In this document: piece by piece, positions 23,722 to 24,141 of the stretch
Position numbering within the stretch: position 1 is the first letter of the stretch
Layout: each line of letters opens with the position of its first letter
DNA from: a bacterium
Lineage (GTDB): Bacteria; Acidobacteriota; Thermoanaerobaculia; Multivoradales; J023
Direction: 5' to 3'
Length of the DNA stretch: 64,000 nt
NCBI GenBank assembly: GCA_024226315.1
Contig: JAAELT010000489.1
Span: 4,830-68,829, forward strand
The notes under the pieces: model-generated
Databases searched by the model: none
What the model was told of the DNA's origin: nothing
What the model saw: only the letters and a program-made list of their open reading frames with translations
Made by a program: the position numbers and the translations under genes

Positions 23722-24141
23722 CGGAGGGTCCTTTTCGCGGAAAATCGCCGTGATCCATCCGCGTCAGGCCGCCGATCTCGCGAAAGGAGCCTCGTCCAGC
23801 CGGGCGGTGCGTCGTTTTCGCGCGAGACGGCTTCTCTAACCGTCCGGAGCTCATTTCTTGAAAAAGACGGCTCGCCCAGCCGGGCGGCACGTCTTTCTGC
23901 GGAAAGACGCCTCGTATGGCTGGTAGAGGCATCTCGCCGGGAATTTGTCCGTCGTACGTCTGGCGGAAGCAGCTTTCCGGAAAAACACGGCCAGCCCGAC
24001 TCGGCGAGGCATCTCGCCGCGAATACGCGCTCCGCGCGGCCAGCGCAGGCTTCTTCCGGAAATTTCGCGTGCCGCGCGGCTGGGGGAGACCTCTATCCGG
24101 AAATCCGCGCACCGCCCAGTTGACGGCGGTGTCTTCCCAGG
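23722..24141. repeat. degenerate tandem array (~10-12 units, ~40-bp period) with core yTTTC-CGGAAA-n-CGGC
   Basis: Motif instances at ~23722, 23805, 23843, 23883, 23954, 24040, 24083 and 24124 (e.g. ctttccggaaaaacacggc; ctttctgcggaaagacgcc; tctatccggaaatccgcgc). Additional shared segments (cgcccagccgggcggcacgtc / cgtccagccgggcggtgcgtcg; gcgaggcatctcgccgggaat / gcgaggcatctcgccgcgaat). Noncoding: the overlapping small ORFs are translations of the repeats. Confidence 0.6.

Follow-up and report, generated by a model that had tools for sequence, protein, structure and literature searches.

How a degenerate repeat came to lie in the gap between two genes of the same direction, and whether it acts there, is the question raised by one locus in the 64,000-nt stretch of DNA analysed here (the window). 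The flanking genes were identified by their Pfam domains.

22465..23613, + strand: fusion of a FeeM/GNAT N-acyl amino acid synthase with a cNMP-binding domain (PF21926, PF13444, PF00027)
24439..26763, + strand: gene for a secreted BNR/Sortilin-type beta-propeller protein (PF15902, PF14870, PF02012)

The BNR gene has a Shine-Dalgarno sequence (GGGAGG) ahead of its ATG at 24439, and its product is a 100% match to P0124. Other genes around the locus encode Ser/Thr kinases with TPR repeats, an S41 peptidase, transporters and assorted enzymes; no cas, par, rep, transposase or nearby regulator genes were found among the window genes scanned with Pfam. The gap (23614-24438) measures 825 bp, against the 750 bp of the original prediction, and the repeat occupies about 54% of it. 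The repeat, termed array 1, begins about 105 bp past the acyltransferase-cNMP stop codon (23613), and the BNR gene starts 280 bp beyond it.

23719..24158, no strand: array 1, about 11 head-to-tail 40-bp units, delimited by lag-40 identity, a register table with consensus, and a leave-one-out matrix
23759..24158, within array 1: strict-phase block of 10 units, all fitting best at offset 0, with no indels; consensus GCTGGnCGAGGCnTCTTTCCGGnAATAGGCGCCTCGCCCA

Tandem Repeats Finder did not report array 1 when run on the gap because the units are too diverged, and an autocorrelation script was used in its place. Self-identity at lag 40 was 0.529 (z = 12.0 against shuffles, 23722-24160), and lags of 80, 120, 160 and 200 gave z = 10.6, 9.5, 6.0 and 5.1, respectively, compared with a maximum z over all lags of 4.0 or less in 99% of shuffles. 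Both self-comparison and a repeat finder had been proposed as checks of the period; the first revealed it, well above shuffles, and the second returned nothing. An 80-bp super-period was not seen in array 1, lag 80 being no stronger than lag 40, and the predicted doubling of some units to about 80 bp is not borne out. By the leave-one-out weight matrix, the best offset of the unit at 23719 is about -2, whereas the sequence at 23679 does not belong; together with the ten units at offset 0, this sets the array at 23719-24158 with about 11 units, close to the ten or more units predicted for 23722-24141.

In this 40-bp register the units align on the core TC-TTTC-(CG)-GAAA, in agreement with the predicted core TTTC-CGGAAA, and columns C2, C12, C15, C19 and G31 of the strict-phase block are near-invariant. 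Mean pairwise identity is about 47%, with adjacent units more similar and similarity falling off with distance. The longer shared blocks that had been described were also found: positions 23776-23832 and 23856-23912 are 70% identical over 57 nt, and GAGGCATCTCGCCG is present twice. These blocks, the similarity of neighbours and the exact register uphold the proposed origin by repeated duplication. The units are about 50% diverged, and array 1 is therefore old. An HMM of the unit found no copy elsewhere in the 64-kb window; with a further 10.8 kb from the same species included, the search for the core motif as a dispersed family likewise gave nothing outside array 1.

The ancestral unit was a 40-bp palindrome, in which a GC-rich arm adjoins a dyad (TCTTTC-CG-GAAAGA) whose T-run and A-run are parted by a short GC centre. 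The palindrome spans the whole unit and not the core alone, a point that the original prediction missed. Mean complementarity about the pair of dyad axes at unit positions 1.5 and 21.5 is 0.45, compared with 0.18-0.34 (typically about 0.27) about the other axes; the unit HMM matches the array on both strands; and inverted matches join different units over 48-49 nt, for example 49 nt at 73%. The layout is clearest in two places.

23859..23902: best-preserved unit, A-run, GC hairpin and T-run TGAAAAAGACGGCTCGCCCAGCCGGGCGGCACGTCTTTCTGCGG, showing the ancestral palindrome layout
23892..23907: best core dyad TCTTTCTGCGGAAAGA, a 16-bp palindrome with one mismatch

The best-preserved unit has a minimum free energy of -21.8 (z = -3.0) on the + strand and -23.6 (z = -3.9) on the - strand. 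Array 1 has diverged to about 47% identity, and most units therefore no longer fold. Folded one by one, the units give a mean z of -1.1, and the palindrome is now a property of the consensus only. In the stem proposed for the units 52% of cells are paired, against 55% when partners are shuffled between units, and no covariation was detected among units in this GC-centred stem. The length of the dyad centre ranges from 2 to 5 bp.

Two further arrays of the same build were found in the window; the original prediction had not noticed that array 1 is one of three.

26904..27165: array 2, 42 bp x 6.2 with 81% matches and no indels (Tandem Repeats Finder); unit CGCCCCGCGGGGCGGGCGCC plus a variable T-rich half
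55919..56166: array 3, 6 units of 41-42 bp, from repeat families and inverted repeats (lag-41 z = 5.7); core TTTTCGCG-TT-CGCGAAAA

Array 2, which has a higher order of 126 bp, has the BNR stop codon (26763) on one side and on the other that of a convergent gene for 144 aa (27148-27582, - strand), whose C-terminal ...VPRGAA is encoded by the last partial unit. Three of its six units are terminator-like on the + strand, against 0.9 expected. Array 3 begins where a PLP-decarboxylase gene ends, at its stop codon, and has a roughly palindromic unit, in which a CATCGCT block is kept and column identity in the alignment is 74%; its units are not terminator-like, and a candidate terminator hairpin lies 3' of the array at 56200-56215. 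Both arrays are younger than array 1. All three begin just 3' of a gene, with periods of 40 (array 1), 41-42 (array 3) and 42 bp (array 2). Palindromes of the form T-run/GC/A-run occur ten times in the window, against 1.55 expected, and eight of these are inside arrays 1 and 3, the other two being at 6017 and 24387. HMMs gave no cross-matches among the three arrays, which share a build and are unrelated in sequence, and each therefore grew from local sequence and not from one shared binding motif. Thus, three times in 64 kb, palindromic tandem arrays of about 41 bp have arisen in this genome at the 3' ends of genes, each out of local sequence unrelated to the others.

The window belongs to a MAG with GY719_ locus tags, and the nearest relatives with a name are Acidobacteriota. 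Comparison with relatives covered loci with homologues of the acyltransferase-cNMP protein (L001, L002, L004-L010) and of the BNR protein (L011, L012, L133). Where the flanking proteins are 61-70% identical there is no array and no synteny, the gaps are short and the neighbours differ; L133 (23 kb) and L012 (10.8 kb, same species) also lack an array. Over 6.6 kb a contig of another assembly, L003, shares 99.8% identity with the window; array 1 is unchanged there and array 2 has one substitution. Comparison of the orthologous gap, which had been proposed as a check for variation in copy number, thus yielded an identical array in one strain and none in the more distant relatives. The suggestion of a rapidly evolving minisatellite is not supported, given the unchanged array in L003 and the age that its divergence implies. 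Eight of the twelve differences between L003 and the window fall inside 52 bp (21503-21554) of the TPR/S41-peptidase gene, which is a local hypervariable or recombined patch.

A relative of array 1 was met through a spurious 164-aa open frame across it, whose sole match among 1.84 billion representative proteins was P0364, a 245-aa protein on a 4,012-bp ENA contig from another metagenome. The two align without gaps over 125 residues, and again at a shift of 40 residues, which equals three units. By tblastn, P0364 matched array 1 alone in the window, in three forward and three reverse frames. Since it matches in all six frames, P0364 is the translation of a related 40-bp array and a spurious gene call over the repeats. 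That array spans at least 735 nt, which suggests that copy number in the P0364 organism differs from that of array 1, and an internal repeat at a lag of 107 aa (321 nt) suggests one 41-bp unit there.

Metagenomes were also scanned for two TTTCCGGAAA cores 38-42 bp apart. At least 120 loci were returned. Many of these are rich in AT and resemble satellites; about a dozen lie on high-GC contigs from soil, where the palindromes, paired or in arrays, closely follow stop codons. Among the arrayed loci, L094 has four cores with a 42-bp period, L058 (213-600) at least ten near-identical 41-bp units with TTTTCCGGGAAAA, L116 (2950-3180) a 42-bp unit with a 21-bp sub-period, and L069 (4076-4264) seven perfect GTTTCCGGAAAC-type sites spaced by about 21 bp just 3' of a 954-aa gene. 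The palindrome CGATTTTCCGGAAAATCG is common to L014, L021/L101, L041, L042, L079, L086 and L094 in seven gene contexts, where it immediately follows a stop codon or a tRNA, either in pairs spaced by 42 bp or as an array of four cores; the pairs fold as stems of 15-20 bp (z from -1.3 to -6.6), and the set looks like a dispersed REP-like family. L014 belongs to Candidatus Dormibacteraeota by its alanine racemase. No homology of the TTTCCGGAAA loci to array 1 was detectable and they were therefore left out of its family, but on their evidence, phased palindromic arrays that follow genes are a recurring feature of high-GC bacteria. Searching the literature for the core motif brought up only papers on eukaryotic STAT, NF-kB and nucleosome positioning.

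It is reasonably clear that array 1 originated from a 40-bp extragenic palindrome that was amplified in tandem and has diverged for a long time since. The fuller account that we favour, tentatively and at somewhat under an even chance, is a lineage-specific tandem amplification of a REP/BIME- or terminator-like palindrome at the gene 3' end, now decaying. The founder would have been a 40-bp palindrome just past the 3' end of the acyltransferase-cNMP gene, laid out as a two-way hairpin module (A-run, GC-rich stem-loop, T-run), a layout found in REP/BIME elements and in bidirectional terminators. The founder may then have been multiplied by slippage, or by unequal exchange, across its hairpin. 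With units head to tail the T-run of one would meet the A-run of the next, and this junction would give the TTTC-CG-GAAA core. Arrays 2 and 3 would have come from other local sequence by the same route, which would make such amplification a repeated event after genes in this genome. If array 1 acts today, its effect would probably be structural, with weak hairpins or AT-rich dyads separating two co-directional genes, and the array may equally be inert.

Among known things the best fit is a module of the REP/BIME or bidirectional-terminator kind, judged by where the array lies, by the size of the unit and its palindromic form, by the terminator-like units of array 2 and by the growth of each array from local sequence. 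Head-to-tail clusters after genes are known for REP-type palindromes, which have been proposed to act there as hairpins or protein landing sites (PMC3733652, PMC2613905). Like the REP/BIME elements (E. coli BIMEs, Stenotrophomonas SMAG, the CGTC/GTAG families), array 1 has a unit whose consensus is a short imperfect extragenic palindrome after a gene, with head-to-tail clustering that places a dyad at a fixed pitch; it lies just 3' of its gene, and arrays 2 and 3 also abut stop codons. Unlike them, it has no dispersed high-copy family in the 64 kb and the 10.8 kb from the same species, the P0364 array being its only known relative, and no RAYT/Y1 transposase was found among the Pfam-scanned window genes. 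A consistent GTAG/CGTC tag is also missing, CGTC occurring beside the T-run, within the stem, in three or four units. Finally, the units are far more diverged than those of typical REPs, and each of the three arrays has its own sequence. REP family membership is not established.

The likeness to bidirectional intrinsic terminators lies in the A-run/GC stem-loop/T-run order of the best-kept unit, the size of about 40 bp and the position at a gene 3' end, and the units of array 2 pass a simple terminator scan. In array 1, unlike a bidirectional terminator, most units no longer form a hairpin. The scan of array 1 found one site, on the - strand at 23882-23868 inside the best-preserved unit, equal to the chance expectation of 1.0, and array 1 does not qualify as an intrinsic terminator. 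We know of no described feature in which a terminator has been multiplied in tandem to 6-11 copies.

Tandem amplification of a 3'-end palindrome leaves two things unexplained, the kept 40-bp step and the similarity of the three periods. Also against it are the loss of most hairpins, the single terminator-like site in array 1, the units of array 3 with no likeness to terminators, and the lack of a dispersed high-copy family in the DNA scanned. In addition, bacterial genomes have a deletion bias under which a 440-bp inert block is not expected to persist so long, and the persistence of array 1 is unexpected under this origin.

For the same two reasons, the kept pitch and the 40-42 bp period shared by three unrelated arrays, a phase-locked binding-site array stays the main rival, possible though doubtful in our view; none of the direct tests run here gave it support. 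A putative dimeric or nucleoid protein would bind TCTTTC-N2-4-GAAAGA once every 40 bp (about four helical turns) and polymerise along the array, and the resulting assembly would govern the promoter of the BNR gene, 280 bp downstream, or serve as an insulator or architectural anchor. Although they have diverged by about 50%, ten units have stayed in exact register. Taking about 0.45 substitutions per site for each unit, as a fall to 47% identity requires, the probability of no indel in ten units is 0.0001-0.005 for an indel:substitution ratio of 0.05 and 0.03-0.12 for a ratio of 0.02; our own count within arrays 2 and 3 gives roughly 0.01-0.03. The best-kept columns of array 1 are the T and A runs and the flanking C/G, in a genome of 67% GC, and array 3 has the same T-run/GC/A-run dyad at a pitch of 41-42 bp. 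The array also lies upstream of a promoter region with palindromes of its own, and the phased TTTCCGGAAA clusters of L058, L069, L094 and L116 have spacings of 21, 41 and 42 bp in high-GC contigs.

Against such an assembly, a dyad centre varying from 2 to 5 bp would be intolerable for a rigid dimer. Conservation in array 1 units has neither mirror symmetry (r = 0.19) nor a 10-bp periodicity; in all three arrays a weak signal recurred at roughly a third of the unit length, but it was not consistent from one measure to another. There is no adjacent DNA-binding gene, the nearest being an FHA/sigma-54 activator 10 kb away, and no sigma-54 promoter was seen by eye in 24160-24438. Further sites are lacking in the 64-kb window, the array is absent in relatives, and arrays 1, 2 and 3 have no common sequence and all lie at gene 3' ends. 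The original prediction of a phased binding array is thus matched by the strict 40-bp step and opposed by the variable dyad centre, the asymmetric conservation, the lack of a regulator gene nearby or of further sites, and the unrelated arrays at other gene 3' ends. Among known systems, one of the nearest is sopC of F, 12 x 43 bp with an inverted repeat in each unit bound by SopB. Array 1 resembles it in having about a dozen dyad units of about 40 bp at a pitch near four helical turns, but the units of sopC are nearly identical and adjoin sopAB, whereas array 1 is degenerate and chromosomal, with no partition or replication genes near.

Taken more broadly, arrays 1-3 and the P0364 array might represent an undescribed class of chromosomal element, with T-run/GC/A-run palindromic units phase-locked at a pitch of about 41 bp (four helical turns) at gene 3' ends. 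A putative protein with a role in architecture or termination would assemble along them in register, and selection would act on pitch, not on sequence. We consider this unlikely. If the 40-42 bp pitch is selected, the arrays would mark a new protein-DNA assembly at gene boundaries, comparable in logic to the BIME-gyrase or sopC-SopB complexes. If they are instead only decayed amplified 3'-end hairpins, they illustrate the growth of intergenic DNA in an uncultured lineage resembling the Acidobacteriota and account for spurious ORF calls such as P0364.

That array 1 is a neutral minisatellite, a chance duplication that expanded and is drifting with no link to terminators or REPs and no function, appears improbable. 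Such an origin would fit the lack of covariation and of symmetric or helical conservation, the lineage specificity of the array and the drop in similarity between more distant units. It would also fit the mismatches at the two dyads, where G.T and A.C show no strand bias (wobble mismatches giving G.U on the + and - strands number 16 and 14 at one dyad and 23 and 27 at the other). Chance, however, does not account for three unrelated arrays in 64 kb that agree in their period (40-42 bp), in having a palindromic unit and in lying just 3' of a gene, nor for the lack of indels or the related array in another metagenome. Array 1 does consist of head-to-tail repeats within the 10-100 bp of minisatellites, and mycobacterial MIRUs are likewise intergenic head-to-tail repeats (40-100 bp) between co-directional genes. 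MIRU units, however, are much more alike and strain-variable in copy number, whereas array 1 is about 50% diverged and identical in one other strain; MIRUs also carry small ORFs overlapping the flanking genes, which array 1 does not, and their units are non-palindromic.

A structured RNA, in the form of 3' UTR or non-coding RNA hairpins that would stabilise the upstream message or titrate an RNA-binding protein, is very improbable. The location past a stop codon fits, GGA is present in most cores, and folding of the array as a whole is somewhat more stable than that of its shuffles (z = -2.5 for the + strand, -3.5 for the - strand). Yet both strands fold equally and wobble mismatches have no strand bias, as expected of a DNA palindrome and not of a selected RNA, and covariation is absent. 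GGA is not enriched either (about 11 by hand count, against about 8 expected from base composition), and Rfam gave no match at gathering score in the window and only chance-level matches in the gap (E > 1, searched up to E = 10).

It is scarcely credible that array 1 is a coding repeat, a CRISPR array or a plasmid-type centromere or iteron array: open frames of 164 and 144 aa do cross it, and its regularly spaced short palindromes superficially resemble those of CRISPR or sopC, but the frames have GC3 of 0.59-0.68, against about 0.9 in real genes (0.91 in the acyltransferase-cNMP gene), and no Pfam match, the 40-bp period is not divisible by 3, and P0364 matches in six frames. The gap is non-coding on these grounds, as had been predicted. 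CRISPR was rejected because the total period of 40 bp is too short, the conserved core is about 12 bp, the segments between cores are homologous to each other, and the scanned genes hold no cas domains. A plasmid centromere or iteron array was rejected on the identity of the units (about 47%) and on the neighbours (acyltransferase-cNMP, BNR, kinases and peptidase), and searches of plasmid, phage and viral collections gave no match to array 1. A ParB/Noc-like site (NBS, ATTTCCCGGGAAAT) was rejected as well, since the 16-bp geometry is present in one unit only and no ParB gene is nearby. Array 1 is real and unusual but not unprecedented, and is classed with the extragenic palindromic tandem repeats.

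Other palindromes were observed outside the arrays. Upstream of the BNR gene, where a sigma-70 scan found no promoter, 24311-24339 holds a perfect 10-bp palindrome, CTACATGTAG, with a near copy 19 bp later, and 24383-24411 holds a perfect 13-bp inverted repeat, ACAGTTTGCAAGC-N3-GCTTGCAAACTGT, 28 bp ahead of the ATG. Judged by sequence, both sets (24304-24411) look like candidate operators or an attenuator for the BNR gene. At 7567-7653, upstream of a short-chain dehydrogenase gene on the - strand, a 33-bp unit is present in 2.5 copies and holds CTCGTG-N6-CACGAG, which gives it the look of a repeated operator.
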